From the NCBI GenBank assembly GCA_943349075.1, contig CALQYY010000001.1, forward strand, positions 8,312 to 72,311: a DNA stretch of 64,000 nt, written 5' to 3'. Of this stretch, positions 142 through 50,965 are shown piece by piece (within the stretch, counting starts at the first letter, position 1; the number at the start of each line of letters is the position of its first letter). The position numbers and the translations under genes are program-made. The DNA is from Candidatus Magasanikiibacteriota bacterium. GTDB taxonomy: Bacteria; Patescibacteriota; Patescibacteriia; Magasanikbacterales; 2-02-FULL-50-9b. The notes beneath the pieces are model-generated. The model was not told where the DNA came from and ran no database searches. It worked only from the letters and a program-made list of their open reading frames with translations.

Positions 142-969
142 ATGGTTAGTGTAAAGTCAGTGCGTTTCTTCGTAGATTCTCAGAACTTTCTGAGATGTTT
201 CTGGCCAGAGAACAGTAGCGCTCAGTTCGCGCTTCGTGAAGTTAATTGGGGGTTACTTACAAAGGCAATTGTTGAAAAAATAGGAGCAACATCCTACAAC
301 ACAGTTAATTTTTATGAGGCATTTCCTGGGGGCGAGCTTCCAAAAGACCCGAGTACTTATCGACCGGGTTTTGCTCAACTTGTAGGAAAGGAGCTTCAGA
401 GTAACCCGAAATTTCTTATCAGGCCAGGGAGTCTTAAAATGAACGACTACGGTAGGCTTAGTGAGAAAGGTATAGACACGACAATTGTTGTTGATATGAC
501 GCGCGGCGCAATACTCGGAGAGTATGACGTTGCAGTGCTGTTTAGCGGTGATCTGGATATGAAGCCAGGGGTCATAGAAGTCCTTCGAAGTGGTCGCGAG
601 TGTGTCATTTGCGGCTGGAATCAGCGAGGCTTGTCGTACGAGCTGAAAAAGCTGATACAACAAGGAAATGGCTTGACCTACCTGGACTTAACTACGCTTG
701 GCACCGCGTTCATAACGCGTGTCAGCTCACTAAAAAAGAACCGAGAGTTATCGTCTGGTGAGTTTGCGGTTTACCTGCTGCTCGCGGACTATCATAATCA
801 GGGGATAAACTGGGTGCCCGCCCAAGATGTGGTTAGCTCAACGTTTCGTGGGATGCCTCCTGGACCCATGAATCGATACAGCTTTCTGCGCAACTTGGCC
901 ACCAATAACCTAATAGAAACAGACTTCTTTCAGATGGGTCCGCAGGCGAACGTACGGCTTGTGGCCTGA
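142..969 (+). CDS. NYN/LabA-like (DUF88) domain protein with a C-terminal domain of unknown function
   Basis: N-terminal FVDSQN and the VAVLFSGDLDMKP motif match the conserved acidic residues of NYN-type nuclease domains. This is recognised by eye from the translation only. Confidence 0.5.
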   Translation: MVSVKSVRFFVDSQNFLRCFWPENSSAQFALREVNWGLLTKAIVEKIGATSYNTVNFYEAFPGGELPKDPSTYRPGFAQLVGKELQSNPKFLIRPGSLKMNDYGRLSEKGIDTTIVVDMTRGAILGEYDVAVLFSGDLDMKPGVIEVLRSGRECVICGWNQRGLSYELKKLIQQGNGLTYLDLTTLGTAFITRVSSLKKNRELSSGEFAVYLLLADYHNQGINWVPAQDVVSSTFRGMPPGPMNRYSFLRNLATNNLIETDFFQMGPQANVRLVA

Positions 970-8274: not shown

Positions 8275-8275
8275 T

Positions 8276-10420
8276 ATGTATAAGATTATTTTTGGATTAC
8301 TAGTATGCTTGCTCTATTCTCAGGGGGTTGCTCAGGCAAGTGATGGTAGTGGTTTGGTTAACAAAACAAATCCTTTTGTTGTTGCTATCGAAAAAGACTA
8401 CCCACCATTTTTGTTTTTTGAAAATAATGAGGTGCAAGGATTGTCATTTGATTATCTAAAATTGGTTTCAAAAATAATGGGACAGCAAGTTCAATTTACT
8501 GAACCCTTGCAGTTAAATGAAATGCTCGAATCGATAAAAAATGGTAAGAGCAATATCCTTATTGATATAACGAAAACACCCGATCGCGATCAATATTTGG
8601 AATTTTCAAATTCATATATTGATGCGCCAGCAGTTGTTGTTGCAAGAAAAAACCACATAAGTGTCTGGGATGGTGGGGGGTCAAATACTGGAATAACTAT
8701 TGCTGCAGGAAAATCGTATGGAGTCGTTTCGTTTCTCAGAGCTCGGTACCCTAAGGCAGTTATTGTTGAAATGCCGACTGATTATGATGTTCTAAAAGCA
8801 GTTTCACTTAACGCAGTAGATGTGGGCGTTTTAGATGTTGGCAGCTACTCGTATTTACAAAAGAAAATTAATTTTGAAAACCTAACAATTCTTGGAAACT
8901 CAGGATTCTTGTATTCTCTGAGCTTTGCTGTTTTGGAAAAAGATAAAGAATTCATTCCGCAGCTAAATAATGCTATCGCATTAATTTCTGAAGATGAAAA
9001 GACGGGTATATATTCAAAATGGATTTCTACTTATGCGAATGAAGATGTTTTGTTGGTTTCAAAACTAACAAAAGAAATTGTGGGAGGTATCTTAGGATTT
9101 GTTCTAATTGTTATTTTGTGGAATTTGATTTTGCAGAAAAAAGTTAAGCAGAGAACAGCAGAACTCGAAAAAGTCCAAAAAGAGATTGATGAGTCGCTTG
9201 TGCGAAGTAGAAAAGAAGCGCTTGTGTATCATGATGAGTCGGAGACTAAAACAACAAAGCTTGAGAAAACAAAAAAAGCGATGTTAAATATTTTGGAAGA
9301 TATTCAGCAAGAAAAAACAGCGCTTTCGCTCCTCACACGAAAATTCAAGATTGCTACAGAATCGGCAAAAATTGGTGTGATGGAAATGGATATTGCGGCG
9401 AATCGTATCTACGGCGATGACATTACATGTGCTTTATACGGGGTTGAAGGTCTTGAGTTTGAGTGTACATTTGAAAAGTGGATGTCATTTGTACACTCAG
9501 ATGATAGAAAAAGGGTCTCAGATAAGATGAATAAATCAATGCAAGACGGCTCAATGTTTGAGGATATCTTTAGAATTATTCGGCCGTCTGGTGAGACTCG
9601 GTATATTAAGGGTTACGCTCAGATTGATTTTGATGAGAAGCATAATCCAGTTAAAATGGTTGGTGTGAATTATGATGTAACTCACGAAAAAGAGGTTGAT
9701 TTGGAAAAGACGGAATTTGTTTCACTTGCGTCGCATCAGCTGAAAACTCCAATCGGATCAATTTCGTGGAATCTCGAAATGCTTGAAAATGGTGACTACG
9801 GAGACCTGACGGACACACAAAAAGAGATTGTTTCTGAAATGTATCTCATGAGCCGGAGAATGAACGAGCTCGTAAACAGTCTTTTGAATGTTTCACGCAT
9901 AGAGCTTGGGGTTTTCATTATTGAACCAGAACCTGTTGATTTTGGTAAATTATGTGACGAGGTTTTGCTTGAACTTAAGCCTCGTATCGAAACCAAAAAG
10001 CACGAAGTATCAAAGACTTATACGGGAAATATACAAAATATTCCTGCAGACCCTAAACTGCTTCGCATAATATTTCAGAATTATCTGTCGAATGCGGTTA
10101 AATATACGCAGGATCATGGAAAAATTGAAGTTAAGATTGTGGCCGATAGCGCGAATGTGCTTGTAAGCGTTTGGAATAATGGAGATCCAATTCCAGAAAA
10201 AGATAAGGAAAAGATTTTTGGAAAAATGTTTAGAGCAAGCAATGCGCAGGCGCAGGACCCTGATGGAAATGGGCTTGGCTTATATCTGGTTAAAAAGATT
10301 ATTGAAAATGGGGGTGGCAAGGTCTGGTTTGAGTCGTCAAAAGAAAAGGGAACAACGTTTTATATTTCAATTCCACTTACCGGGATGGTCCGCAAAGAGG
10401 GAACTAAAAAGCTTGACTAA
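8276..10420 (+). CDS. sensor histidine kinase with a periplasmic family-3 solute-binding domain, a PAS domain, HisKA and HATPase_c
   Basis: Signal peptide, an SBP_bac_3-like domain, a TM segment and a PAS domain. The H-box is LASHQLKTPIGSI and the G-boxes are GNGLGLYLVKK. Confidence 0.8.
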   Translation: MYKIIFGLLVCLLYSQGVAQASDGSGLVNKTNPFVVAIEKDYPPFLFFENNEVQGLSFDYLKLVSKIMGQQVQFTEPLQLNEMLESIKNGKSNILIDITKTPDRDQYLEFSNSYIDAPAVVVARKNHISVWDGGGSNTGITIAAGKSYGVVSFLRARYPKAVIVEMPTDYDVLKAVSLNAVDVGVLDVGSYSYLQKKINFENLTILGNSGFLYSLSFAVLEKDKEFIPQLNNAIALISEDEKTGIYSKWISTYANEDVLLVSKLTKEIVGGILGFVLIVILWNLILQKKVKQRTAELEKVQKEIDESLVRSRKEALVYHDESETKTTKLEKTKKAMLNILEDIQQEKTALSLLTRKFKIATESAKIGVMEMDIAANRIYGDDITCALYGVEGLEFECTFEKWMSFVHSDDRKRVSDKMNKSMQDGSMFEDIFRIIRPSGETRYIKGYAQIDFDEKHNPVKMVGVNYDVTHEKEVDLEKTEFVSLASHQLKTPIGSISWNLEMLENGDYGDLTDTQKEIVSEMYLMSRRMNELVNSLLNVSRIELGVFIIEPEPVDFGKLCDEVLLELKPRIETKKHEVSKTYTGNIQNIPADPKLLRIIFQNYLSNAVKYTQDHGKIEVKIVADSANVLVSVWNNGDPIPEKDKEKIFGKMFRASNAQAQDPDGNGLGLYLVKKIIENGGGKVWFESSKEKGTTFYISIPLTGMVRKEGTKKLD

Positions 10421-22684: not shown

Positions 22685-23203
22685 ATGAATCTCGACTCAC
22701 AAATTGTTTTAAGTGTTCATGCGTTCGTTGTTGCACATCCACTCGCGGCAACAATCGCATTTGTTTTTAATTACGGTTTTGTTGTCCTGTTGTTGGTGCT
22801 GTGCGGGGGACATATGTTCGTTAATCGAAAAAAGATGGAGGTTTTGTTTGTCCCGTTTTCGATGGCGGCGGCATATGTGGTGAGCCGTGTGATTGGCATG
22901 ATTTATTTTCGACCACGACCGTTTATCCCACTCGATTTTGTTCCGCTCATCGTTCAGTCGCCGTTGAGCAAATCATTTCCGTCGAGTCATTCAATTGCGG
23001 CATTTGCGGGGGCGTATATGCTCTACAAATTTAACAAACAGTGGGGTCGCTGGGCGCTCGGGTGCGCGGCAATGATCGCGATTTCGCGTGTTTTGGTGGG
23101 CGTTCATTATCCAACTGACATCCTTGCCGGGGCAGCGCTTGGCGTGCTACTATCTGAGCTCATATACCGCTATCGAAAGAGCCTATGGGGCAGCTCAAAA
23201 TAG
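22685..23203 (+). CDS. PAP2-family phosphatase (undecaprenyl-diphosphatase-like)
   Basis: KxxxxxxRP, PSGH and SRxxxxxHxxxD motifs (FPSSHS; SRVLVGVHYPTD). TATAAT -10 upstream. Confidence 0.7.
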   Translation: MNLDSQIVLSVHAFVVAHPLAATIAFVFNYGFVVLLLVLCGGHMFVNRKKMEVLFVPFSMAAAYVVSRVIGMIYFRPRPFIPLDFVPLIVQSPLSKSFPSSHSIAAFAGAYMLYKFNKQWGRWALGCAAMIAISRVLVGVHYPTDILAGAALGVLLSELIYRYRKSLWGSSK

Positions 23204-24252
23204 TCATTCGCGCCGGTGGAACAGGGACACGTTTGTGGCCGCTTTCAACGTCGGATTTGCCAAAACAATTTGTTCCTGTTTTGTCGGACAAATCACTCCT
23301 TCAAGAGACATTTGAGCGTGTCCGATCTTTTGGTGCTGAAAATATTTTTGTAACAACGAACGCTCGATACGTTGGGTTAGTTGGGGAGCAGTTGCCGGAA
23401 CTTGACCCACATCACATCATCGCTGAACCATTGAAACGAAATACCGGTCCGGGCGTTGCGTTTGAAACGGCGGTGCTTTCAGGTTTTTTCGGTGACGAAA
23501 ATCCGACGATCGCAAGTATTCCATCTGACGATTTTGTCGGGAATCCTGAGGCATTTGCTTCGGCGATAAAAAAGATTGCGCAGTATTTGGATGAGCATGA
23601 GCGGTTTATTGTGATGCCACTCGTAACACCTGAAACGGTTGATCCGGGATACTCGTATGTGCGCGCGGAGTTTGGCGAGAGCGAGACTGCAAAGGTTAGC
23701 GAGTGGGTTGAAAAGCCGGACGCTGAACTTTGTCGCGCGATGATTGATGAGGGGTCGTGGTTTGCACACACAGGAATGTATATTTGGAAATTAAACACGG
23801 CTGCTGCGATGTTTGAACATTTGGTTCCAGCGGTTTGGAGACGAGTTATCGAAATTCGTGATGCAATTTCAGCGGGCGATGAGTCACGCGCGCTTCAGGC
23901 TGCACACGATTTGCCGATTGTCTCAATCGAATCGATGGTAACGAAATTGTATGATGCGAAGGTTGGGTTTTTAGCGGATGCATGGAATTGGTCGGATGTT
24001 GGAAAGTGGACGGTGGTGAAGGAGTTGCTCAAAGCCGATGACAAGAAAAATGCATCGTCGCATGATCAGGTTCATTTTGTGAATGCGCAAAATAATTTGG
24101 TCTATGGCGCGCAAGGAAAACGCGTTGTGTGTATCGGGGTTTCAAATTTGGTGATTGTTGATCGTGGCGACCATCTGCTTGTGTGCCGCATTGAGGAGTC
24201 ACATAATATCGGGGCGATCTCAGAGGAGCTCAATAAAAAAGGGTTGTTATGA
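23185..24252 (+). CDS. mannose-1-phosphate guanylyltransferase-like sugar nucleotidyltransferase
   Basis: N-terminal GGxGTRLWPLS nucleotidyltransferase motif and the ManC-family length. Confidence 0.75.
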   Translation: MGQLKIVIRAGGTGTRLWPLSTSDLPKQFVPVLSDKSLLQETFERVRSFGAENIFVTTNARYVGLVGEQLPELDPHHIIAEPLKRNTGPGVAFETAVLSGFFGDENPTIASIPSDDFVGNPEAFASAIKKIAQYLDEHERFIVMPLVTPETVDPGYSYVRAEFGESETAKVSEWVEKPDAELCRAMIDEGSWFAHTGMYIWKLNTAAAMFEHLVPAVWRRVIEIRDAISAGDESRALQAAHDLPIVSIESMVTKLYDAKVGFLADAWNWSDVGKWTVVKELLKADDKKNASSHDQVHFVNAQNNLVYGAQGKRVVCIGVSNLVIVDRGDHLLVCRIEESHNIGAISEELNKKGLL

Positions 24253-40670: not shown

Positions 40671-41582
40671 ATGAAGAAAAATGAAAAAATTATAATTACA
40701 GGAGGTCTAGGGTTCATATTCTCTTATGTGACTGAGTATTATGTCGCACAAGGTTACGATGTCGTTGTTATTGATAATCAGACAGAAGGGAGTCACCCTG
40801 AAATAATTGATGGCAGCTTTCATTACTACAACCTAGATGTTGCTGAGCCATCAGTAATGAAAATTATAGAGGAGTACAACCCGGATTATATTATTCATGC
40901 TGCGGCTATTTCGGACGTTGATTATTCAATTAGAAATCCATACCAGACTTTGCAAAAAAATATTATGGGTAACCTTAATATTTTTGAAGCTGCGCGTCAT
41001 CTTACAAACTTGAAAAAAATTGTATACGTCTCTACGGATGAAGTGTATGGTGAGTGCGAACATTTAAAGCGTGAGGATGAAATCATTTTTCCAAAAAATC
41101 CTTACTCATGTTCTAAGGCTGTTGGTTCGCTATTTCGGATTGCATTTGAAAGTACCTTTAGTGAGTTGAAGGATAAGACTGCTGAAACGCGTTTTTGCAA
41201 TGTATTTGGACCTCGTCAGGATAGTAGAAAAATTTTACCGGCTATTAAAGAGGGTCTTGAGAAGGGGAAATCATTACCATTACACAGCGAAGGAAAAGGT
41301 TATCGTGAATATATTTACGTCAAAAATATTCCTGAAGCCGTTGATCTCATTTTACATAACGGTAATCGTACATATAATCTTACCTTAAATGAGGGCTTTA
41401 CTGTTTCAGAGCTGATTAATAAAGTTGAAAAAGTTTCAGGCAAGAAAATTATGACACACCCAACAGATCGGCCAGGAATGGATCTTAAATATCAAATGGA
41501 TAATAGTAGAATTATGGAACTTGGTTGGAAACCTCTATACAGTTTCGAGCAAGGTCTTACTGAATATTTAGGGGAGCTCTAA
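40671..41582 (+). CDS. NAD-dependent sugar epimerase/dehydratase (SDR family)
   Basis: TGGLGFIFS Rossmann motif and a YSCSK catalytic YxxxK. Confidence 0.8.
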   Translation: MKKNEKIIITGGLGFIFSYVTEYYVAQGYDVVVIDNQTEGSHPEIIDGSFHYYNLDVAEPSVMKIIEEYNPDYIIHAAAISDVDYSIRNPYQTLQKNIMGNLNIFEAARHLTNLKKIVYVSTDEVYGECEHLKREDEIIFPKNPYSCSKAVGSLFRIAFESTFSELKDKTAETRFCNVFGPRQDSRKILPAIKEGLEKGKSLPLHSEGKGYREYIYVKNIPEAVDLILHNGNRTYNLTLNEGFTVSELINKVEKVSGKKIMTHPTDRPGMDLKYQMDNSRIMELGWKPLYSFEQGLTEYLGEL

Positions 41583-41588
41583 GAGATT

Positions 41589-42500
41589 ATGAGAAAAGCT
41601 CTGATCACGGGCGGCGGTAAATTTATTGGTTCTCATCTTGCAGAGGAACTAATGCTGCGTAATTATGAAGTTCATATAACCACTAGTTCACCTCAGGGAA
41701 TAGAGGAAAAATATAATGTTGGTGCAGCTGTGCATGTTTGTGACATACGTGATTTTGATGCCATGATGAAGTTGTGTGAAGGAGTGGACTATATTTTTCA
41801 TTTTGCTAGCCATGCGGATCAGGCATGTATTGATAATCCAATTGAGACCGAGAGTGTCAATGTTGGGGGGGCTGTCTCAATGCTGGAAGTTGCTCGACGT
41901 ACAAGGGTAAAAAAGTTTATCTTTGCTTCGTCTGCTATGGTATATGGTGATCAAAAGCAAGTACCTCTTCGAGAAGACCTCTCTGCATTACCAGTTGAGC
42001 CATATGGGTTATACAAGTATTTTGGCGAACGCCTTATGAAATTTTGGGCGGAGCAGTATGCTGTCCCAACAGTTACATTGCGATTTTTTAATGTGTATGG
42101 CCCTCGAGATCCTGTCGGACCTGCTGCGTATGTTATAGGTCGATTGTTAGATAGACGAATAAATAAGTTGCCTCTAACGATTGATGGCGACGGGACTGAT
42201 ACACGTGATTATATCCATGTTACTGACGTTGTTCGCGCATGTATTATCGCAGCGGAACATCCTGATGTGAGTAATGGAGAATTGTTCAATATTGCCACTG
42301 GTATAGAAACCTCACTTAATACGCTTGCGGCACATATAGGAGGAAAAGTAATACATCTTCCAAACCGTTCCGGCTCACGTCGCGGTCCGAATCGACGTGT
42401 CGCAGATATTTTACATGCTAAAACTGTTTTAGGTTGGGTGCCGAATATTACGATTGAGGAGGGTATACAAGCCCTCAAAAATGATCTTGGTATAAGTTAA
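41589..42500 (+). CDS. NAD-dependent sugar epimerase/dehydratase (SDR family)
   Basis: TGGGKFIGSHL Rossmann motif and YGLYKYFGE YxxxK. Confidence 0.8.
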   Translation: MRKALITGGGKFIGSHLAEELMLRNYEVHITTSSPQGIEEKYNVGAAVHVCDIRDFDAMMKLCEGVDYIFHFASHADQACIDNPIETESVNVGGAVSMLEVARRTRVKKFIFASSAMVYGDQKQVPLREDLSALPVEPYGLYKYFGERLMKFWAEQYAVPTVTLRFFNVYGPRDPVGPAAYVIGRLLDRRINKLPLTIDGDGTDTRDYIHVTDVVRACIIAAEHPDVSNGELFNIATGIETSLNTLAAHIGGKVIHLPNRSGSRRGPNRRVADILHAKTVLGWVPNITIEEGIQALKNDLGIS

Positions 42501-42524: not shown

Positions 42525-43169
42525 ATGGATCACGAGAATGATTTAGAAAATTGGTTTAAGTCTCAGCAGGAGATTCTTGCTATTGATGTAAAAGAGATAG
42601 CGCTGGCAGATGGTCAGGATTGGGTGATCACTCAGGAAGATGGACGTCCTCATCACATTGGACATAAGACAGGGAAGTATCATCGCGGTGTTTTACTTAA
42701 AGCTTGGGATAATGTACGGCAAGCGTGGATAGAGCGCTTTTTATTAGCGCCAATTCCTCCTGAGGGTGTTGAAAAATTCTATGGCGTTACTCTCATAGCT
42801 CGCTACAACGATCGATATCTGGTACAAGCGAAAGCAGAGCCGGGTAATCCGACTCCGGGCCATGTCCAATTGACTTCTACAATTCAGGCCTCTTATACGA
42901 ATATAATGGCGCAGCTTTCTGGGTCAATTCCTTTTACTTGGATGTATAAGAATGAACGCTGTATACAACTCATTAGCTCTCAAGATGGAGCGCAATTATA
43001 TCTAAAGAACAATAAAGTATCTTTTCTTGAACTTGCAGAAGAACCGAAAGAAATTCCAGAAAATTTTGCTTGGGCAACAGCTGCAGAAATTAAGTCATTT
43101 GCTCAGCGTGGATTAGTTTCAGAACATATAATGCAATGCTTGGGTGTCTGTTTTTTGGCAGATAAATAG
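42525..43169 (+). CDS. single-domain NDP-hexose 2,3-dehydratase-like (Nudix-fold) protein
   Basis: VQAKAEPGNPTPGHVQLTSTIQASYTNI resembles my recollection of the QAKxEPGN...LSPTVQAT signature of EvaA/TylX3-type dehydratases. It is only about half the length of canonical two-domain enzymes. Confidence 0.45.
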   Translation: MDHENDLENWFKSQQEILAIDVKEIALADGQDWVITQEDGRPHHIGHKTGKYHRGVLLKAWDNVRQAWIERFLLAPIPPEGVEKFYGVTLIARYNDRYLVQAKAEPGNPTPGHVQLTSTIQASYTNIMAQLSGSIPFTWMYKNERCIQLISSQDGAQLYLKNNKVSFLELAEEPKEIPENFAWATAAEIKSFAQRGLVSEHIMQCLGVCFLADK

Positions 43170-43241
43170 CTTGCGGTGTTACTTCTGTTTTGATAGTATT
43201 ATTTCGTACATGATAATGTCTGTGCGACAATCTAATATTGT

Positions 43242-44270
43242 ATGAAAAAAATTAAGCTTTTTAAGCCATATGTAAGCTGGCGGGCAATATGGAATGTGGT
43301 GAAGGTTTTACGGAGTGGTCAATTGGCTGAAGGACCTCAGGTTGCTGCATTTGAAAAAGAGTTTGGAGAAATGTTTGGTTTGTCTGATGTTATCACGCTT
43401 AATTCAGGTACGGCCGCACTTGAGTTGGCGTATGAGCTAGCTGGTATAACAGTAGGCGATGAGGTTATCAGTCCTGTTCTTACGATGCCGGCAACTAATA
43501 TTCCTTTGGTCCGACGCGGAGCAAAAATTATTTTCGCAGATACCGAAGATGATTTAAATATTAGTATTGCGGATGTTGAGCAAAAAATAACACCAAACAC
43601 AAAAGCAGTTGTTTTTGTTCACTTTAATGGCAATAACCGAGGGCTTAATGAGCTTGTGGCTCTGTGCGCAAAGAAAAATATTATTCTTATTGAAGACGCT
43701 GCTCAGGCTGTTGGCTCTGATAACTGGGGAAAGGGGGATTTTGTTTGTGTTTCATTTCAGGCAATTAAGACATTTACTACAGGTGATGGTGGGGCTTTAA
43801 TCTGTAAAAATAAGGAGTTGACACCAAAGGCACGTCGATTGCGTTGGTTTGGTTTCGACCGACAGCGCAGACAGACTGCTGACATTACTGAAGCAGGATA
43901 TAAATATCATATGAATGATATTGCAGCGGCGATTGGCCGCGGTAATTTACGTTCAGTTCAGAAAGTGATTGCACATCGCAAGAGTCTTGTAGAAGAATTT
44001 AATAAGCACGGTATACCTGCGCATATCTGGCGCGCATTTATTCTTACAGATCAGCGTGAGGAATTACAAAAAAAATTAAAAGATAATGGTATTGATGCTG
44101 AGGCATACGATAATCGGAATGATATCTATTCGTTATTTGGTGGTCGACAAAGTTTTCCAAACATGGATCGTTTGGAAAAGCGCTATCTGCTTCTACCGCT
44201 TCATATGGGAGTTTCTTTAGACGATGTTCGTAGAATGAGTAAGATAATTAAAGAGTTTTATGCAATATAA
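43242..44270 (+). CDS. DegT/DnrJ/EryC1/StrS-family PLP-dependent sugar aminotransferase
   Basis: N-terminal fold-type I aminotransferase blocks, and an FQAIK-type Lys region (SFQAIKTFTTGDGG). Confidence 0.85.
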   Translation: MKKIKLFKPYVSWRAIWNVVKVLRSGQLAEGPQVAAFEKEFGEMFGLSDVITLNSGTAALELAYELAGITVGDEVISPVLTMPATNIPLVRRGAKIIFADTEDDLNISIADVEQKITPNTKAVVFVHFNGNNRGLNELVALCAKKNIILIEDAAQAVGSDNWGKGDFVCVSFQAIKTFTTGDGGALICKNKELTPKARRLRWFGFDRQRRQTADITEAGYKYHMNDIAAAIGRGNLRSVQKVIAHRKSLVEEFNKHGIPAHIWRAFILTDQREELQKKLKDNGIDAEAYDNRNDIYSLFGGRQSFPNMDRLEKRYLLLPLHMGVSLDDVRRMSKIIKEFYAI

Positions 44271-44820
44271 AAATCCCGACATCTATTCATCGTACAGAGA
44301 AAACGATCTTGGAAGAACTTTTTATGATTTAGTGCTTGAGCACAAACCAAAGAAAATTATAGAGTTTGGAACATTATACGGTTACTCCACTGTTGCAATG
44401 GCAATGGCTCTTGATGAGTTGGGTGAGGGACATGTCTGGGCAAACGATTTGTTTGAAGACTATGAGTTCAGACACTCAACAATGGAAGAAACTCAGAAAA
44501 ATATTGATACCTACGGTGTTACAAAATACATAACCTTACAAAGGAATGATTTTGAGGAGTGGTTAAAGAATCCAGAACCTTTTGATCTTCTTCATGTTGA
44601 TATCTCAAACAAGGGTGATACGATTGAACGATTATATGAAGCAGTGAAAGATCAGATTGCGCATGGAGCAATTGTTATTTTTGAAGGAGGAACTGAAGAG
44701 CGCGATCAAGTAGAATGGGTTACTAAATACAATTGTAAAAAAATTTATGGATCAGGAATTCCATATAAGGTATTAAATCCTAATTTTACTTCATTATCTC
44801 AATTGATTATACCAGAATGA
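44260..44820 (+). CDS. class I SAM-dependent methyltransferase (Methyltransf_24/TylF-like)
   Basis: IIEFGTLYGYST motif I. The small size and deoxysugar context suggest a sugar O- or N-methyltransferase. Confidence 0.55.
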   Translation: MQYKNPDIYSSYRENDLGRTFYDLVLEHKPKKIIEFGTLYGYSTVAMAMALDELGEGHVWANDLFEDYEFRHSTMEETQKNIDTYGVTKYITLQRNDFEEWLKNPEPFDLLHVDISNKGDTIERLYEAVKDQIAHGAIVIFEGGTEERDQVEWVTKYNCKKIYGSGIPYKVLNPNFTSLSQLIIPE

Positions 44821-45647
44821 AATTAGCTATTATCGCCAGTGGTTGGCATTTTCCACTACATTTTTTTAAGCAGATGTCCGAACAAAAAATACCAGCTGGG
44901 TGGACGGTTGATATGTTTTGCGTGTCTCATCGAGATCCCTCATTTTCTGTATCTGAAAAAAAGGAAATGCTTGCGCATATGGGCTATACACGTCGCGAGC
45001 TGTATGATCGAATACTATATGAGCAGATAGCGACTGTTGATGATATTAGAGAGCTTGGATGGGCTTACGTGCTTGAACCGAACATTATTGGTGACATGGG
45101 TAATGTAAATCAATGGCTTGAGAAAAACGATTATAAACAGTACGACAAGTTCTTGTTTACGCACGATGACAACTTTATTCTTTCTACTGAAATGTTGAAA
45201 GATATATTGCCACAGAATGATTGGCTTGTCTTAAGTAATAGCGATGGACATACGCAGCGTCGGCTACGTAAATGGCTTAAATTACCTAAGGAGTTTAGTA
45301 TTCGTGGTTCGTTCGAGTTTTTTACAAAAGAAATGCTTGATATTATGGGAGGTAAATTTGATTTATCTGATGTTCAGTTGACAAGAGACGGAGAGGTTAC
45401 CACAAGCGGTGTATTTGATGAGTTGAGTGATTGGAACGCTACAGTTGTGCCCTGGCAGCGTCTCATTGAAGAAAAAAAACTTAGATCCCGTATACATGCG
45501 CTTTCGGGTTATTATCGGGTTAGCAAATATTGCATTGAGGGAGAACGTGGTTTTATACATCGTACCGAAGCTTGTAATACTGACGAAGAAAATCGAGGTC
45601 TTGATATGGTTGAAAAAAATTTTGAGCGATTGAAGGCTCGTGCTTAA
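44817..45647 (+). CDS. hypothetical protein in the sugar locus
   Basis: Translationally coupled to the upstream gene (ATGA overlap). No recognisable motif. Confidence 0.4.
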   Translation: MKLAIIASGWHFPLHFFKQMSEQKIPAGWTVDMFCVSHRDPSFSVSEKKEMLAHMGYTRRELYDRILYEQIATVDDIRELGWAYVLEPNIIGDMGNVNQWLEKNDYKQYDKFLFTHDDNFILSTEMLKDILPQNDWLVLSNSDGHTQRRLRKWLKLPKEFSIRGSFEFFTKEMLDIMGGKFDLSDVQLTRDGEVTTSGVFDELSDWNATVVPWQRLIEEKKLRSRIHALSGYYRVSKYCIEGERGFIHRTEACNTDEENRGLDMVEKNFERLKARA

Positions 45648-45910
45648 GATGGCGGCATTGTTGAAAGCTACTTTGGAACACGAAGAATTCGAGAATTTCA
45701 TGGTGAATTTAAGTGTGGTAGGGGAATACAACAAACATTTTGGTGGCCACATGGATGAGATTGTGATACTCTGCGAGTAAAGCTTGAACGACTAGTAAAG
45801 CATTATTTATAAACCTAAATATCTAGTCTAAAATCATATACAAATCCAATGAGGAGTGCTCATCAGTTTTGAAGCATATTTAATTTTCTTGGATAAAATA
45901 GAGAAAGTTT

Positions 45911-46636
45911 ATGAAAATAAAAGATTTTGTTTTAGCATTAGTTTCTCCAAATTTACGATTTCGCATTGTAAATTTTAAAAACAGTATTTACGGCGGATAC
46001 AAAAAATTTTATTTTTCTCAAAACGGCGAAGACGTTGTCGCTGCTACATTGTTTGATGATTTAAAAATTAAAAATGGTTTCTATGTTGATGTTGGTGCGC
46101 ATCACCCTCAACGATATTCGAATACAAATTTGCTTTTCTTAAAAGGTTGGTCAGGTATCAATATTGATCCAAACCCCGAGACTATTAGGCTTTTTAACTC
46201 AGCAAGAAAGAGAGATATAAATCTTAATGTGGGTGTTGCTGAAAATAAATCTGAAATTACTTACTATAATTTTTCCGACCCAGCTGTGAATACTTTTTCT
46301 GCACAAGCTGCTAAAAAGTATGAGGATAAAAAATGGATTTCATTAATAAGCAAAACCCTTGTCAGCGTTACTCCGCTCCGCGAAATTTTGGCGCAGCACT
46401 TACCAACAAATAAAACCGTTGATCTTTTAAATATTGATGTCGAAGGTTTTGATATGGAAGTTTTGAGATCAAATGATTGGGAAAATATTAAACCCTGTGT
46501 GATAATTATAGAAGACCATCTTTTTGATATTAAAAAATCGGAAAATAGTGAAATATACTCTTTTCTTTTACAGAGAGGTTATCGACTGCATGTGTATTTA
46601 GGATTTTCGTTAATTTTCGTAAGAGGGGGTATCTAG
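45911..46636 (+). CDS. FkbM-family methyltransferase
   Basis: YVDVGAHHPQ and LLNIDVEGFDMEVL motifs characteristic of the FkbM domain. Confidence 0.7.
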   Translation: MKIKDFVLALVSPNLRFRIVNFKNSIYGGYKKFYFSQNGEDVVAATLFDDLKIKNGFYVDVGAHHPQRYSNTNLLFLKGWSGINIDPNPETIRLFNSARKRDINLNVGVAENKSEITYYNFSDPAVNTFSAQAAKKYEDKKWISLISKTLVSVTPLREILAQHLPTNKTVDLLNIDVEGFDMEVLRSNDWENIKPCVIIIEDHLFDIKKSENSEIYSFLLQRGYRLHVYLGFSLIFVRGGI

Positions 46637-46699
46637 ATAAATTTTAAAAAAAAGACTATTATATATTTTCCCCATCACATTGCGGGAAGGAGATTTCAC

Positions 46700-46912
46700 A
46701 TGAGCGATCGGTTCGAGACCTCAATCCTGTGCGGATTGAGCCGTTCTTTGGTTAGAGACAGTTCGCGGGGACCAAGTCTCCAGCCTTCCGGAAATCCTGT
46801 GGAGGATTCTGAGATTGAAGCGCCTGTTCCGTGGGGATCGCATCGGATTGATCCGAGTCACATCCCTCCGCCGCCAGGCCACATTTCGGATCCGCCCACC
46901 CCATCCAACTAA
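46700..46912 (+). CDS. questionable 70-aa Pro/Ser-rich ORF at the 5' edge of the high-GC island (it may instead be a structured RNA)
   Basis: Strong SD GGAAGGAG sits 7 nt upstream of the ATG. The product is low-complexity and the region is rich in short hairpins. Confidence 0.25.
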   Translation: MSDRFETSILCGLSRSLVRDSSRGPSLQPSGNPVEDSEIEAPVPWGSHRIDPSHIPPPPGHISDPPTPSN

Positions 46913-46972
46913 CAGGACAACCTGTCCTGTTTTCGCGCCACTGACGTAACTGTTGGTGGCGCTCGTTTTTAT
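46912..46972 (+). terminator. tandem stem-loops plus T-tract, copy 1 of a repeated terminator element
   Basis: acaggaca-acc-tgtcctgt then tttcgcgccactgacgtaactgttggtggcg then ctcgttttta. Confidence 0.5.
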
Positions 46973-47092
46973 CATTTGATTGTTGACCGTCTTGTGTATT
47001 TGTTATAGTTTGTTTTGGCAGATAGGCTGCGATGAAGGTGATATCGGTCTCGTTTTTGGGGTGGTGGCGGGAACGGCCTATGCGCACATTCG

Positions 47093-47368
47093 GTGAGCGA
47101 CCAAGAGTTATTCAAATTGTGGCTGCTGGAGGAGTTCATGAACAAAGGTCCTGAAGATGAGATTCTCAAAAGAATTGCCAAGATGGGGGTCGGCGAAGAA
47201 GTTACGTTCGGGCCACAGATTACCGGAACTGAATGGGCTTACCAGCTCATTCGTACCGAGGGAGGAAGACTTGATCTTCGGATGGTCCATGTTTCGGGGA
47301 CGTGTGAGTTCTCGACCGTGGGAAATCCGAATGGAGACATACTCTTCACTCACAAGCACTCTGAGTAG
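47093..47368 (+). CDS. hypothetical 91-aa protein, short member of a two-gene paralog family (with 49097-49693)
   Basis: GTG start with a weak RBS. Shares the motif E(E/S)VTFGP(Q/E)xTGT(E/Q)W(A/S)Y with the 198-aa protein downstream. Confidence 0.35.
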   Translation: MSDQELFKLWLLEEFMNKGPEDEILKRIAKMGVGEEVTFGPQITGTEWAYQLIRTEGGRLDLRMVHVSGTCEFSTVGNPNGDILFTHKHSE

Positions 47369-47391
47369 TCTTGCATCAAGAACGCAACCGT

Positions 47392-47432
47392 TTTTTCGCG
47401 CCATTGACGTAACTGTCGGTGGCGTTGTTTTA
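47392..47432 (+). terminator. copy 2 of the repeated terminator element
   Basis: ttttcgcgccattgacgtaactgtcggtggcgttgttttatt is near-identical to copy 1. Confidence 0.5.
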
Positions 47433-47441
47433 TTATTCACG

Positions 47442-47470
47442 TTGACACTCGAAAGGTTTGTTCGTAGTAT
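47442..47470 (+). promoter_or_regulatory. sigma70-like promoter (TTGACA, 17-nt spacer, TAGTAT)
   Basis: Consensus -35 with a 17-nt spacer. It implies the true start of the downstream gene is the ATG at 47512 after a GGAGG RBS. Confidence 0.45.
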
Positions 47471-47511
47471 GTGGATTACAAGCCTTTAATACGGGCCGTT
47501 TGGAGGAATTC

Positions 47512-48162
47512 ATGCAGAAGGGTGATTGGCGTTCGTGGTTAGCGAGACATCGCGAGCAGAGCTCAATGAGGGCTGAAGTAGTTCCGATTTCGCAGGTCGG
47601 TGACTGGCAGGTTCTGGTTGACGAGTCTGGACAAGCGGTTTCTGTCGGGCGCGCGGACGGGAAGTATCATGAAGCGGTCGTTGTGCGTGTGAGCAACGCT
47701 CGCCGCGAAGTGCCTGATTATTCGACACTCCTTTTCCGAGAGGCAACGAAGCCAGGAGAAGAGGGCGTCATGGTTTTGGTCGGAGACGGCCAGGGAAATT
47801 TCCTGATTCAGGCAAAGGCCGAGCCGGGAAATGACACAGAAGGCAAGGTTCTTCTTGCGGCGACGCTGCAAGTCTCCAGGGCCAATCTCGGACAGGCGCA
47901 TGGGGGGGGTATACCTCCGCGAGCAGAGCTTTTCGGTCAGGTCGATCCCGCCGGATGGTGCCTCATTCGGGCTGATGGCGCGCGTTTTCTCAGCAAGCGA
48001 AACTTGTTTGCAGTCGCGATTGTTGATCGCGGTGGGTTTGAGACAAGCGAATCTGAGCGCTGGTTCACAGACGCGGAGCTCTGCGAGGCGCTTCAGGATG
48101 GGGAAGTTGGTGAGCTTTTGGCGCACGCCTGGCTTGCAGCACTCAAGATGCCACGAGTCTAG
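47512..48162 (+). CDS. single-domain NDP-hexose 2,3-dehydratase-like (Nudix-fold) protein, high-GC paralog of 42525-43169
   Basis: GKYH and LIQAKAEPGNDTEGKVLLAATLQVS are shared with the sugar-locus protein. GGAGG RBS. Confidence 0.5.
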   Translation: MQKGDWRSWLARHREQSSMRAEVVPISQVGDWQVLVDESGQAVSVGRADGKYHEAVVVRVSNARREVPDYSTLLFREATKPGEEGVMVLVGDGQGNFLIQAKAEPGNDTEGKVLLAATLQVSRANLGQAHGGGIPPRAELFGQVDPAGWCLIRADGARFLSKRNLFAVAIVDRGGFETSESERWFTDAELCEALQDGEVGELLAHAWLAALKMPRV

Positions 48163-48171
48163 GACAAGGCT

Positions 48172-48224
48172 CATGGGCGGCAGTTCGAGGTTGAAACGAC
48201 CTCGGCTGCCGCTTTCTTTTTATC
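48172..48224 (+). terminator. intrinsic terminator
   Basis: Imperfect long hairpin, ggcggcagttcgaggt...acctcggctgccgc, followed by tttcttttta. Confidence 0.45.
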
Positions 48225-48236
48225 TAAATTCACGTA

Positions 48237-48265
48237 TTGACAGTAATTAATTTTTGATGTATTAA
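48237..48265 (+). promoter_or_regulatory. sigma70-like promoter (TTGACA, 17-nt spacer, TATTAA)
   Basis: Consensus -35 with a 17-nt AT-rich spacer, upstream of the GGAGG-ATG at 48313. Confidence 0.45.
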
Positions 48266-48312
48266 TCATGCACGCTAACTGCGCTGCCATCTAGTGGCAG
48301 AGGAGGCTGTTC

Positions 48313-49008
48313 ATGTCTAGGAGCTTTTCATTGCGGCCTCGCCGCGAAACGCTCGAGGAAGTGAACCGGTTGATAACCAAAGAGTGTCCTTGGTTTGTTC
48401 CAATTGCAGATGAGCGCGAACTCGGTATGTGTTCGAAAGGTGAGATTGAGATTATCGCTGTGGCTCAGGTGGTCGCGGATTTGTGGCATGCGTTCGCGCA
48501 TGTGCAGTTCACGACCATCCAGCCCGACGGTAGCTTCAAACCCTACACAGTTCGAATCGACAAGCCGGCCGCGCTCGTTTATGCGGTGATCAATGGAAAA
48601 CTGCTCTTGTCGTACCAGTCTCGGCTGGCGATCGGTAGTAAGTGGACTCTTGAGTTGCCGCGTGGTTGGGTCTCGCCGGAGGATGCGAGAACGCCTGAGT
48701 CAGCGGTGCGTGCACTGTTGACGCGGGAATGTGGATCGGCATTCGTGGCTTCGCTAAGCTCGTTTCGGCCTGTAGAGGTAAAACGAATTTGGCAGGATAC
48801 GGGTACGATGCGCAGTGATTTGCCGGTGTACTATCTCGAGGCAGAATCTGTGCTCATACCACTGGAACGCCAGGGTGTGTGCAAGCCGAAGCTTTACGGC
48901 TTTGGTGAAGCAGATGAATTGGAAGAGAAAGGAAAGCTGAATGACGCACTCTCTCTCGCAGGGTTGCGAGTGGTGGAGCGTTATCTGCAACGCACGGTCC
49001 GGCTCTAG
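48313..49008 (+). CDS. Nudix-like fold protein with a degenerate Nudix box
   Basis: AALVYAVINGKLLLSYQSR beta-strand followed by WTLELPRGWVSPEDARTPESAVRALLTRECG follows the Nudix topology, but the REUxEE catalytic glutamates are not conserved. Confidence 0.4.
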   Translation: MSRSFSLRPRRETLEEVNRLITKECPWFVPIADERELGMCSKGEIEIIAVAQVVADLWHAFAHVQFTTIQPDGSFKPYTVRIDKPAALVYAVINGKLLLSYQSRLAIGSKWTLELPRGWVSPEDARTPESAVRALLTRECGSAFVASLSSFRPVEVKRIWQDTGTMRSDLPVYYLEAESVLIPLERQGVCKPKLYGFGEADELEEKGKLNDALSLAGLRVVERYLQRTVRL

Positions 49009-49096
49009 GCCGGGAACATACTACGCAGGCTGCTCGTCTCGGAGCAGGTGTGGCACCTGGCAGACCCTACGGGGACTGCGATAACGGTGCAGTGCT

Positions 49097-49693
49097 ATGA
49101 ATACTTCAAGCAAGATCAATGTTGAACTCCAAGCAGCTCTCGGCGCGCTGATCGCTCAGCTTCCGGCGGGCGAGAGTGTCACCTTCGGTCCCGAACAGAC
49201 AGGTACGCAGTGGAGTTACACTCTCACGGCGTGCGAGATTGACGGGAAACGGCGCGTGGATGCCCGGCTTCACAACACAAGCGATGGCATGGATTGGTTC
49301 TACGCTGTGGACACACAGCCGCACAAGCTCGGCGCGCCGATCATGTACGAGGAGCCGTCACTACGCGTGCCGTGTGCGGAAGCGGGCATCTTGGATCAGG
49401 AGGGATTTCTGGTTGGTGTCGTGGCTTTCGGGGACAGCACGCTGCGCGCGAGCTGGTCCAAGTTGGTCAAAATCGAACAGAAGCAGTTCGGGTTCGCCCC
49501 GGATCGCAGCTTCTCGATCAACGGCGAACTCATCGGGTACGTGTGGGCAATTGTCCTTGCGAACAAGAATCGCATCGATGGCTACGTGGCAGTCGTCCGC
49601 CCCGAGTCGCCGATCGGTCCGGTGTGGGTGTTGGAGCTCGAGGACGTCGTGCGCGAAGCGGTCCTCCAGGATGCGCTGCGTGTGAACGTGTAG
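49097..49693 (+). CDS. hypothetical 198-aa protein, long member of the paralog family with 47093-47368
   Basis: Shared N-terminal motif GESVTFGPEQTGTQWSYTL. The C-terminal about 110 aa are unique. Confidence 0.4.
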   Translation: MNTSSKINVELQAALGALIAQLPAGESVTFGPEQTGTQWSYTLTACEIDGKRRVDARLHNTSDGMDWFYAVDTQPHKLGAPIMYEEPSLRVPCAEAGILDQEGFLVGVVAFGDSTLRASWSKLVKIEQKQFGFAPDRSFSINGELIGYVWAIVLANKNRIDGYVAVVRPESPIGPVWVLELEDVVREAVLQDALRVNV

Positions 49694-49719
49694 CTCGGTT
49701 CCTTCGGGGTCTGGGCAGT

Positions 49720-49762
49720 GGGTGGTAGGTTGTCGTCAAGACGCCTGCCACCCTATTTTTAT
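49720..49762 (+). terminator. intrinsic terminator
   Basis: gggtggtagg...cctgccaccc stem with one G.U pair, followed by tattttta. Confidence 0.5.
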
Positions 49763-49763
49763 A

Positions 49764-49791
49764 TTGACTTTTTTTTAAAAAACGATACAAT
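49764..49791 (+). promoter_or_regulatory. sigma70-like promoter (TTGACT, 16-nt spacer, TACAAT)
   Basis: Hexamers immediately follow the terminator. This implies the real start of the next gene is the ATG at 49831 after AAGGAGG. Confidence 0.45.
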
Positions 49792-49830
49792 TCCAAAATG
49801 CTCTGTAATTTTGTGGGGCAAGGAGGCGCG

Positions 49831-50616
49831 ATGTCTGAGATTAAAGATTTGTATGGTCAGCTACTTGAGCTGACTGCGGGTTACCAGGATATTGATGTTG
49901 GGGCGATGCGGGCTGATGCAAAGCGTCGCGGTATTGACCCTGAGTTTATGAACTGGCTGGTGGATCGTCTGGAACACTACAAGGACGAGATGGTGGTGAC
50001 GCGCCGGTCACTTTTGGATATGAAGCCATGGGACATTGTGGAGGGCGTACTGCTCAACATGGCTCGTGCGTTCTTTCAGATCTGGGGCATCGAAGTCTAT
50101 TTGCGTTCGAAAGGTCAACGCTTCACGCAGCCGATCATTAGCTACCCCGAACCGGGAGTAGAGGTGCTCGTGCATGCAGTGAAGGACGACCGATACCTTT
50201 TGCGTCTGCGTCAGGCTCCGGGTGGCAGCGACAGCCGAAGCAAGCTCGGCTTTGTCCCAGGGCTCACAGCATCAGCCTCTCACCTCAAGGGGCTCGACGC
50301 TGCGAAGCATCCGGCACGGGCACATCTTATTGAGCTCGCGCTCCAAAAATTCTCGGAGCTTCCGAACGACAGGATCCCGGCATGGTTCTTCATGCCCAAG
50401 GATCAGGCTCGCTATGACAATTCCTACAACTTCGTCGTGCCGCTGCGTGTCTGTAACAAGAGCAGTGTGCCGGAGATTGATGATCCGGATGAGTTATGGC
50501 TCAGCCCTGCAGAAGTGCTTTTTTGCGCGCGCTGGTGTCTGCTCGACCAGCATGCGTACGAGGCGTTCGGCGCGCTCCGTATTGTCGAGGATGTACTGCT
50601 TCGGGTACACCCGTAG
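49831..50616 (+). CDS. hypothetical protein, possibly a divergent third member of the 2,3-dehydratase-like/Nudix-fold family
   Basis: LLRLRQAPGGSDSRSKLGFVPGLTAS aligns loosely with the QAKAEPGN...LTSTIQAS block. The C-terminal DDPDELWLSPAEVLF parallels the WxTxAEL region of the paralogs. Confidence 0.4.
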   Translation: MSEIKDLYGQLLELTAGYQDIDVGAMRADAKRRGIDPEFMNWLVDRLEHYKDEMVVTRRSLLDMKPWDIVEGVLLNMARAFFQIWGIEVYLRSKGQRFTQPIISYPEPGVEVLVHAVKDDRYLLRLRQAPGGSDSRSKLGFVPGLTASASHLKGLDAAKHPARAHLIELALQKFSELPNDRIPAWFFMPKDQARYDNSYNFVVPLRVCNKSSVPEIDDPDELWLSPAEVLFCARWCLLDQHAYEAFGALRIVEDVLLRVHP

Positions 50617-50634
50617 TGGTTTCGGCAGCAGTTG

Positions 50635-50686
50635 GACAGCGGCACGTATTCTTCGGGATTCGTGCCGCTGTCCTCTTTTTTATTTT
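50635..50686 (+). terminator. intrinsic terminator closing the high-GC island
   Basis: gacagcggcacg...cgtgccgctgtc 12-bp stem followed by ctcttttttatttt. Confidence 0.6.
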
Positions 50687-50857
50687 CGGAGTTTGGAAAA
50701 TGGTGTCGACACTATTAATGAGTCTTTGGGCGCTTCCGGGAGACTGCGCACAAGCATTCGCGCGCAACATTATGTTGCGCATCGCGAATGCGCGGAGGAA
50801 CAAGTGAATTTCGCGGTTAAGCGAAATGAGCGGTCTCGCGGAAGCGCCCAAAAACTC

Positions 50858-50886
50858 TTGACAGCCTTTCAAAATTCCGCTAAACT
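50858..50886 (+). promoter_or_regulatory. str-operon promoter (TTGACA, 17-nt spacer, TAAACT)
   Basis: Consensus -35 with a 17-nt spacer, about 80 nt upstream of rpsL. Confidence 0.5.
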
Positions 50887-50965
50887 CTCCCTACATTCCT
50901 TTCAAAACTTATTCTCTCATCTGCGCGCGGCTGGAATGTGAACCGCTGCCAGAGTAACCAGTGCT

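Follow-up and report, generated by a model that had tools for sequence, protein, structure and literature searches.

Single-domain, half-size members of the EvaA-type NDP-hexose 2,3-dehydratase family in a glycan locus and a GC-rich island of a Candidatus Magasanikiibacteriota bacterium

We analyzed a 64,000-nt stretch of DNA (the window) from a Candidatus Magasanikiibacteriota bacterium (GenBank assembly GCA_943349075.1, contig CALQYY010000001.1, positions 8,312 to 72,311 of the forward strand), focusing on three open reading frames (ORFs), designated H1, H2, and H3, that resemble nucleoside diphosphate (NDP)-hexose 2,3-dehydratases. All are encoded on the plus strand: H1 (42525-43169; 214 amino acids, aa) lies in a low-GC sugar locus, and H2 (47512-48162; 216 aa) and H3 (49831-50616; 261 aa) lie in a GC-rich island that spans 46.9-50.9 kb, 4-7 kb from the sugar-pathway genes of H1. 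A preliminary description of this DNA had proposed the three ORFs as half-size dehydratase-like proteins. All of them were present and exceeded the gathering cut-off (25 bits) of the 203-position Pfam model PF03559 (NDP-hexose 2,3-dehydratase), with significant matches for H1 (62 bits, E 6.7e-17, model positions 2-189), H2 (69.7 bits, E 3e-19, positions 4-191), and H3 (29 bits, E 8.7e-7, positions 3-119). Each protein contains one PF03559 stretch and not the two tandem domains of the canonical architecture. The start of H3 at 49831 is preceded by an AAGGAGG ribosome-binding site 5 nt upstream, while an alternative ATG at 49798 abuts a promoter-like site, and we therefore regard 49831 as the correct start. 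We conclude that all three proteins belong to the EvaA-type (PF03559, Nudix-fold) family of NDP-hexose 2,3-dehydratases, each with a single domain.

Canonical 2,3-dehydratases are two-domain enzymes, and EvaA is a dimer of two-domain subunits: its active site is pocket A, which contains E139 and E190, and pocket B is described as left over from gene duplication (PMC8987622). EvaA was the sole PF03559 structure found in the PDB copy searched. Using phmmer, H1 (E 2.1e-10) and H2 (E 5.8e-18) both matched the two halves of EvaA (PDB 4j7g), the N-terminal half better. The AlphaFold model of H1, built on a 22-sequence alignment, was confident (predicted local distance difference test, pLDDT, 92; predicted template modeling score, pTM, 0.85). 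Foldseek placed EvaA (4j7g/4j7h) first for this model, with E of about 1e-10 and a query-normalized template modeling score (TM) of 0.63-0.68, followed by ADP-ribose pyrophosphatase, GDP-mannose hydrolase, and NUDT14 (TM about 0.4-0.5, identity 7-15%). The H1 model thus has a Nudix-like fold that superimposes on an EvaA domain and, together with the PF03559 matches, bears out the assignment to a Nudix-like, EvaA-type family. The Nudix hydrolase model PF00293 gave no match to H1, H2, H3, or the island protein C described below (E up to 1), and the Nudix box GX5EX7REUXEEXGU is absent from H1, H2, and H3.

H1 and H2 are 30% identical (BLASTP E 3e-19). Both contain the GKYH, QAKAEPGN, and WxTxAE(I/L) motifs that had been pointed out for them; the (L/V)QxS part of the signature likewise forms a block in both, but its wording needs correction in H1, which reads IQAS. 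The catalytic Glu of the EPGN block, corresponding to E139 of EvaA, is present in H1 (E105) and in H2. An invariant Asp-Gly (D154 in H1) falls on E190 of EvaA in the HMMER alignment of H2 and one position later in the MAFFT domain alignment. Both of these acidic residues of H1, E105 and D154, are conserved, as are the Lys and Asn residues that mark the active pocket of EvaA. H2 keeps every family-invariant residue, and the same chemistry is therefore expected; H2 looks catalytically intact and probably shares the chemistry of H1, with less certainty than for H1 itself. Most of the invariant residues are missing from H3, described earlier as more divergent: Q101, K103, E105, N108, N126, G155, and K161 are lost, with Ala at the position of the catalytic Glu (RLRQAPGG for QAKxEPGN). 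Pairwise alignment of H2 with H3 was scarcely possible, and H3 spans positions 4-203 of a profile made from half-size proteins. H3 is probably a non-catalytic, degenerate paralogue.

When 1.84 billion representative proteins were searched with a profile, only 1,324 family clusters were retrieved, and the best 150 were inspected for architecture. About 43 of these 150 were single-stretch proteins of 195-250 aa, and most of the others had two stretches and about 400-510 aa, in agreement with the earlier statement that the canonical enzymes are larger and two-domain; 102 full-size comparison proteins also carry two PF03559 stretches. H1 had 26 relatives of 198-237 aa, and H2 had 15 of 154-238 aa. 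Across over 80 clusters and dozens of loci, half-size length was steady at about 200-250 aa. Scanning of metagenomes added an abundant marine group of dozens of loci (L045-L114, about 30% GC) encoding single-domain PF03559 proteins of about 249 aa, near which neither a second PF03559 match nor a GC excess was found. The ratio of nonsynonymous to synonymous substitution rates (dN/dS) between H2 and its homologue in the related locus L006 was 0.09, indicating purifying selection, and two further island genes, C and A2, are also under purifying selection (dN/dS 0.20-0.25). Because of the steady lengths of the relatives, their share of the family clusters, the marine loci, and purifying selection, we regard the half-size class as real and conserved: the half-size architecture is a large conserved class, neither an artefact nor special to the window. 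A gene for a DegT-type aminotransferase was detected in 37 of the 80 metagenome loci fetched, and in those inspected it was usually no more than a few kb away from the half-size gene; in many loci of the marine group the distance was about 1-2 kb.

The source annotations of some half-size relatives already read "NDP-hexose 2,3-dehydratase" or "oxidase EvaA", so that their family membership was known. The single-domain form is a widespread, uncharacterized branch of a known family and not a new kind of enzyme. One locus departs from both architectures: in a metagenome-assembled genome (MAG) of Deltaproteobacteria (L024), an N-half-like and a C-half-like PF03559 match lie separately, at 7779-8627 (in a 282-aa ORF) and 8777-9373. 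This is either a true split two-gene enzyme or the result of a frameshift or assembly error.

We constructed a neighbor-joining tree of 279 domains, in which 97 two-domain proteins were split into N- and C-halves and compared with 85 half-size domains. Half-size domains, N-halves, and C-halves each formed a clan of this tree. Of 100 bootstraps, 67 recovered the half-size domains as a monophyletic group, and another 26 did so once the long-branch H3 was set aside. The phylogeny against both halves of the canonical enzymes, which had been proposed as a check, thus places the half-size domains in a clan of their own. Because they are nested in neither half, the half-size proteins are not recent fission products. 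Mean distances were 1.68 between N- and C-halves, 2.02 between half-size domains and N-halves, and 2.38 between half-size domains and C-halves, values that fit a divergence before the duplication without proving it. The half-size clan holds two deep subclans, H1-type (38 members) and H2-type (47 members), the latter including H3.

Conservation at key positions (H1 numbering) was then compared among the three clans. K103 is kept in 89% of half-size domains, 100% of N-halves, and 56% of C-halves; the catalytic E105 in 97%, 100%, and 89%; N108 in 96%, 95%, and 26%; and N126 in 98%, 100%, and 37%. K161 is kept in 94% of half-size domains and 100% of N-halves and is lost from C-halves, where Glu is commonest (38%). 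R65 shows the opposite pattern, being present in 88% of half-size domains and 98% of C-halves and not conserved in N-halves (Gly commonest, 41%). A half-size chain therefore joins the catalytic N-half signature (K103, E105, N108, N126, and K161) with an Arg of the C-half. One half-size chain thus carries features that are split between the halves of the two-domain enzymes, from which we infer that it has what a homodimer would require.

H1 is surrounded by genes for sugar modification, all on the plus strand. Upstream is SDR1 (40671..41582), a short-chain dehydrogenase/reductase (SDR) resembling the NDP-hexose 4,6-dehydratase RmlB: TIGR01181 was its best NCBIfam match (195 bits, below the equivalog cut-off), its best PDB matches were dTDP-glucose 4,6-dehydratases (2hun, E 1.6e-39), and its translation contains STDEVYG and YSCSK motifs. 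SDR1 is kept upstream of H1-type genes with 65-69% identity. SDR2 (41589..42500; PF01370, 188 bits), an NAD-dependent epimerase/reductase and candidate ketoreductase, gave no specific NCBIfam equivalog and is kept in L015, L018, L019, and L020 at 53-58% identity. Downstream of H1 are a DegT/DnrJ/EryC1-type pyridoxal phosphate-dependent sugar aminotransferase (43242..44270; PF01041, 245 bits), whose counterparts after the H1-type genes of L015-L019 are 61-75% identical, and an S-adenosylmethionine-dependent methyltransferase of the Methyltransf_24 type (44260..44820; PF13578, 55 bits), with 81% identity in L015 and L018. The next gene, U276 (44817..45647), encodes an orphan 276-aa protein with no match in Pfam, NCBIfam, or PDB, including a search with a 4-sequence profile. 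U276 is a conserved member of the module in at least five other loci, where it follows the DegT or methyltransferase gene (L015-L019, 49-66% identity). It has numerous invariant positions, such as those of the HDDN and GERG motifs, and is a candidate for an unrecognized sugar-modifying enzyme. The low-GC part of the glycan locus ends with a gene for an FkbM-family methyltransferase (45911..46636; PF05050, 85.6 bits; TIGR01444).

The core order SDR-(SDR)-H1-DegT-(Methyltransf_24)-U276 was found in five other loci at 49-81% identity, among them two MAGs named Candidatus Paceibacteria and Saccharibacteria; an RmlC-like isomerase is added in one locus. The neighborhood described earlier for H1, a DegT aminotransferase and methyltransferases, was therefore confirmed, extended by the RmlB-like 4,6-dehydratase and the second SDR, and found to be conserved in L015-L020. 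H1 thus has both the 4,6-dehydratase and the aminotransferase/ketoreductase partners, and its gene order is what a typical pathway to an amino-2,6-dideoxy sugar would show. Judging from sequence and context, H1 is most likely a homodimeric NDP-4-keto-6-deoxyhexose 2,3-dehydratase that makes an amino-deoxysugar for a surface glycan. In such a homodimer, two identical H1 chains would stand in for the N- and C-domains of EvaA. From the gene order, RmlB-like SDR1 would yield NDP-4-keto-6-deoxyhexose, and H1 would take off the C-2 hydroxyl to give a 3,4-diketo-2,6-dideoxy intermediate. DegT and SDR2 would then aminate and reduce this diketo intermediate, and the methyltransferases would decorate the sugar, so that an amino-2,6-dideoxy sugar may enter the strain-variable surface glycan of this ultra-small, probably Paceibacteria-like bacterium of the Candidate Phyla Radiation (CPR).

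Beyond the sugar locus, the left edge of the GC-rich segment is marked by a hairpin/terminator-like repeat (46930..46968, plus strand; 12-bp stem and T-run), of which a second copy lies at 47393..47431 on the same strand; the two form a 39-nt direct repeat (87% identical copies) that brackets a small ORF, A1 (47093..47368, plus strand). L002, a 99.9%-identical contig from another sample, stops inside copy 1, and this end suggests that strain heterogeneity starts there. The repeats were considered as cassette or att (integron-like) sites and rejected, as there are two copies only, they bracket A1, and they look like ordinary terminators. A1 shows 45% identity over 44 aa to the N-terminal motif of A2 (GE.VTFGP..TGT.W.Y); neither belongs to a known family. 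A1 contains an in-frame TAG in L009 and L010, where the DNA is about 88% identical, and may be a decaying gene or non-coding.

H2 is preceded by a promoter-like site (47442..47470, plus strand; TTGACA-17-TAGTAT, 10/12, a consensus match only), and its ATG by a GGAGG ribosome-binding site. It is followed on the same strand by C (48313..49008), a 231-aa orphan protein that is a recurrent neighbor of H2-type genes in this lineage (L006-8, L032-34, and L035). C has 5 relatives only (dN/dS 0.20-0.22), and its AlphaFold model was poor (pLDDT 50). A stretch resembling a degenerate Nudix box can be seen in C by eye. The idea of C as a third Nudix-fold protein was dropped, and C was left unassigned: a single-sequence phmmer match to ADP-ribose pyrophosphatase (E 0.009) weakened to E 0.34 once a profile was used, and comparison with the half-size family by hhalign yielded only 1.7%. 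The next gene, A2 (49097..49693, plus strand), encodes a 198-aa orphan protein with a 77% identical homologue in L006 (dN/dS 0.25); no family matches were found for it, including in Pfam, PADLOC, and PHROGs. H3 has its own promoter-like site (49764..49791, plus strand; TTGACT-16-TACAAT, 10/12, again a consensus match only).

The right boundary of the island (50617..50965, plus strand) comprises the terminator hairpin of H3, a structured element of about 140 nt, and a promoter-like site of rpsL (TTGACA-17-TAAACT at 50858-50886). The spacer between H3 and rpsL (50617-50900) folds far better than shuffled sequences (-134.7 kcal/mol, z = -9.5). Its multi-stem element (about 50720-50857) is closed by 31-nt arms at 50720-50750 and 50827-50857, is 95% identical in L009-L011, and is partly present in L006. 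In the closing stem, comparison of the window with L009 by eye revealed one compensatory change from G-C to A-U and one change from G-C to G-U. The element had no Rfam match.

The sugar locus and the island differ sharply in composition, as had been noted for H1 and H2. GC content and GC content at third codon positions (GC3) are 0.41 and 0.33 in H1 and 0.58 and 0.58 in H2. GC3 is 0.26-0.34 in the whole sugar locus and 0.58-0.74 in the island genes, compared with 0.40-0.42 in core rpsL, rpsG, and fusA, so that the two segments deviate from the core in opposite directions. The GC excess is not an effect of amino acid composition, since GC3 is raised too. The junction between low-GC and high-GC DNA is no assembly chimera, because independent assemblies from other samples show this junction or ones analogous to it. 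The two deep half-size subclans and the separately variable DNA segments are in line with the earlier suggestion that H1 and H2 were acquired independently. In the window as a whole, nearly all long ORFs lie on the plus strand, and the cumulative GC skew climbs steadily, as within one replichore; the gene content, with genes of glycolysis, operons for ribosomal proteins, and large glycan loci, is in keeping with a reduced genome of the CPR type.

A variable slot extends from an M50 peptidase gene to rpsL, and its contents differ among the window, L009, and L032. L009 is 100% identical to the window in EF-G and S7, with a synonymous divergence (dS) of 0.15 for EF-G and 96% DNA identity from 50639 onward; its H2 is only 55% identical, and it is without C, A2, H3, and the H1 module. 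L006 has H2 (68% identity), C (86%), and A2 (77%), plus a cupin-like ORF. In L032 and L033, M50 and C are followed by an H2-type gene that immediately precedes rpsL. In these two, the plus strand (L032 8706-9452; L033 3134-3880) encodes an H2-type PF03559 protein (229 bits), and the public 223-aa gene call on the minus strand is likely a mis-call arising from the high local GC (0.60-0.65). In L035, an H2 copy 87% identical to that of the window (162-812) has an in-frame stop at codon 28; behind it come C (94%) and another H2-type gene, closer to the L009 allele. This looks like allele turnover under way. H3 was found only in the genome of the window. In a CPR-like lineage of about 32% GC (L041, L042; L012, L013), several kb separate rpsG and fusA of the str operon, and this insert includes genes for a LytR_C protein and an SDR besides one of the H2 type. 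In most loci examined, H2-type genes are 7-20 GC points above their flanks, with almost no excess in a distant Peregrinibacteria relative. The H2 subclan appears to travel as a small GC-rich cassette, residing here in the variable slot between the glycan locus and rpsL. A defense or phage origin of the island was rejected: PADLOC defense models (E up to 1) and PHROGs gave no match to the island proteins, 2.9 million viral contigs contained no relatives, and no integrase, transposase, or tRNA was seen near the island.

Taken together, we favor with fair confidence a reading in which the half-size proteins form a distinct clan of the EvaA family, H1 is a homodimeric dehydratase, H2 shares its chemistry, and H3 is degenerate. 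Several points weigh against it. The second catalytic acid is Asp rather than Glu, at or beside the E190 position of EvaA. The PDB and NCBIfam matches of DegT include both C-3 and C-4 aminotransferases, so that either position could be aminated. As to the nucleotide carrier, the window contains a ManC-like nucleotidyltransferase (23185-24252) but no RmlA. The tree was made from simple distances, on a sample biased to sequences similar to the query profile, and its three clans cannot be rooted. Our searches turned up neither structural nor enzymological work on the single-domain PF03559 class, nor any paper discussing it, and no half-size structure in PDB. Finally, H2-type relatives in Magasanikbacteria and Doudnabacteria (L023 and L030) stand solo among housekeeping genes, beside valS or holA, without SDR, DegT, or other sugar-pathway partners. 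Because H2-type genes elsewhere lie outside sugar clusters, the role of H2 is less certain than that of H1, and a dedicated sugar-pathway role of H2 is not supported by context outside this lineage.

This solo occurrence is one of the observations that would be expected if the island copies (H2, perhaps with C and A2) formed a cassette that is mobile and varies between strains, and that acts on NDP-sugars by itself and not as a step of a biosynthetic pathway. As one example, such an activity might drain the pool of NDP-4-keto-6-deoxyhexose via an unstable diketo product, in conflict, in defense, or in switching off a surface glycan; the product of 2,3-dehydratases decays to maltol and NDP in the absence of a downstream enzyme. 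The excess of about 7-20 GC points over the flanks recurs in at least seven separate loci and extends to synonymous sites (GC3 0.58 in H2 versus 0.40 in the core), and alleles of conspecific strains are as divergent as described for L009 between conserved flanks. The contents also vary: H2 alone, H2-C-A2-H3, H2-C-A2-cupin-like, C-H2, or H2 with a stop plus C and a second H2-type gene. However, the searches for defense, phage, viral, and mobility genes reported above all came back empty, and in this lineage the cassette always abuts the glycan locus, a classic strain-variable region, so that ordinary glycan diversification explains its variability. We consider the stand-alone cassette rather unlikely.

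In a broader version, the H2-type clade would be a horizontally circulating, GC-rich element of CPR bacteria, a single gene or a small cassette, with a function in conflict or surface variation; as a separate point, the half-size clan as a whole may be the surviving pre-duplication enzyme. The element would land repeatedly by core operons (before rpsL, between rpsG and fusA, or by valS/holA) and be swapped between conspecific strains, and its stand-alone 2,3-dehydratase-like activity would drain or divert NDP-4-keto-6-deoxy sugars outside any fixed biosynthetic pathway. A pre-duplication form of the enzyme was reportedly inferred in the EvaA structure paper. This reading is quite unlikely in our judgment.

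The asymmetry of EvaA could also be rebuilt by an H2-H3 heterodimer, with H2 providing the catalytic, N-half-like pocket and H3 a degenerate, C-half-like one. Both genes lie within one 3.5-kb island, and the retention of all invariant residues in H2 and the loss of most in H3 parallel pockets A and B (PMC8987622). On the other hand, L009, L006, L032, L023, and L030 have H2-type genes without H3, which was found only in the genome of the window, two genes and a promoter-like site of its own separate H3 from H2, and H3 groups within the H2-type half-size subclan, away from the C-halves, all of which make a heterodimer improbable. That the half-size ORFs are truncated or split pseudogenes of full-length enzymes, or metagenome misassemblies, is effectively refuted: decay is seen in the related L035 locus and separate N-like and C-like matches in different frames or ORFs of the Deltaproteobacteria MAG, but the steady length, the lack of an adjoining second PF03559 match, the purifying selection on H2, C, and A2, the clan apart from both halves, the complete and confident H1 model, and the shared junctions in independent assemblies all oppose it.

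The favored reading, a distinct half-size clan with H1 as a homodimeric dehydratase, bears on both enzyme evolution and CPR biology. To our knowledge, the biochemistry and structure of sugar 2,3-dehydratases are known from two-domain actinomycete enzymes alone. A single-domain clan with the catalytic-half signature and one C-half residue makes the duplication hypothesis directly testable, and a protein of about 215 aa would be a minimal scaffold for engineering 2-deoxysugar biosynthesis. The H1 module predicts amino-2,6-dideoxy sugars, which as far as we know are otherwise found chiefly in antibiotics, on the cell surfaces of CPR/Patescibacteria, organisms that live attached to host cells. The main value of the locus thus lies in a testable model of the pre-duplication enzyme and in evidence for such sugars on CPR surfaces. 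The strain-swapped, GC-rich H2 cassette beside the str operon is a further, unexplained piece of CPR genome dynamics.

As a genomic arrangement, the locus resembles the hypervariable loci for O-antigen and capsule, where glycan genes of atypical composition lie between conserved flanks and alleles or modules are swapped between close strains. Unlike those loci, it consists of two segments whose GC3 values deviate from the core in opposite directions (0.26-0.34 and 0.58-0.74 versus 0.40-0.42), and the GC-rich part encodes orphan proteins and no recognizable glycosyltransferases.

The nearest known enzymes are the dTDP-4-keto-6-deoxyglucose 2,3-dehydratases EvaA (Amycolatopsis orientalis; PDB 4J7G/4J7H), TylX3, Gra27, OleV, and SpnO. 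The half-size proteins share with them PF03559 and, as modeled for H1, the Nudix-like fold. With the exception of H3, they also have the QAKxEPGN block, including its catalytic Glu, and the Lys and Asn residues typical of the active N-domain; H1 alone also shares the upstream 4,6-dehydratase and the downstream DegT aminotransferase. They differ in having one domain of about 215 aa in place of two tandem domains of about 450-500 aa, in forming a clan apart from both halves with Asp for Glu at or next to E190, and in residing in surface-glycan loci of CPR bacteria, whereas the EvaA type resides in antibiotic clusters of actinomycetes. In fold and size (about 150-220 aa), the half-size proteins are like the NDP-sugar Nudix hydrolases, namely ADP-ribose pyrophosphatase, the E. 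coli GDP-mannose hydrolase YffH/NudK, and human NUDT14. These hydrolases catalyze pyrophosphate hydrolysis, not dehydration, and H1, H2, and H3 differ from them in lacking the Nudix box and PF00293, with identities of 7-15%. ADP-ribose pyrophosphatase, GDP-mannose hydrolase, and NUDT14 are homodimers, a precedent for a homodimeric half-size dehydratase. By analogy with both groups, the half-size proteins probably work most like EvaA and are assembled like the homodimeric NDP-sugar Nudix hydrolases.

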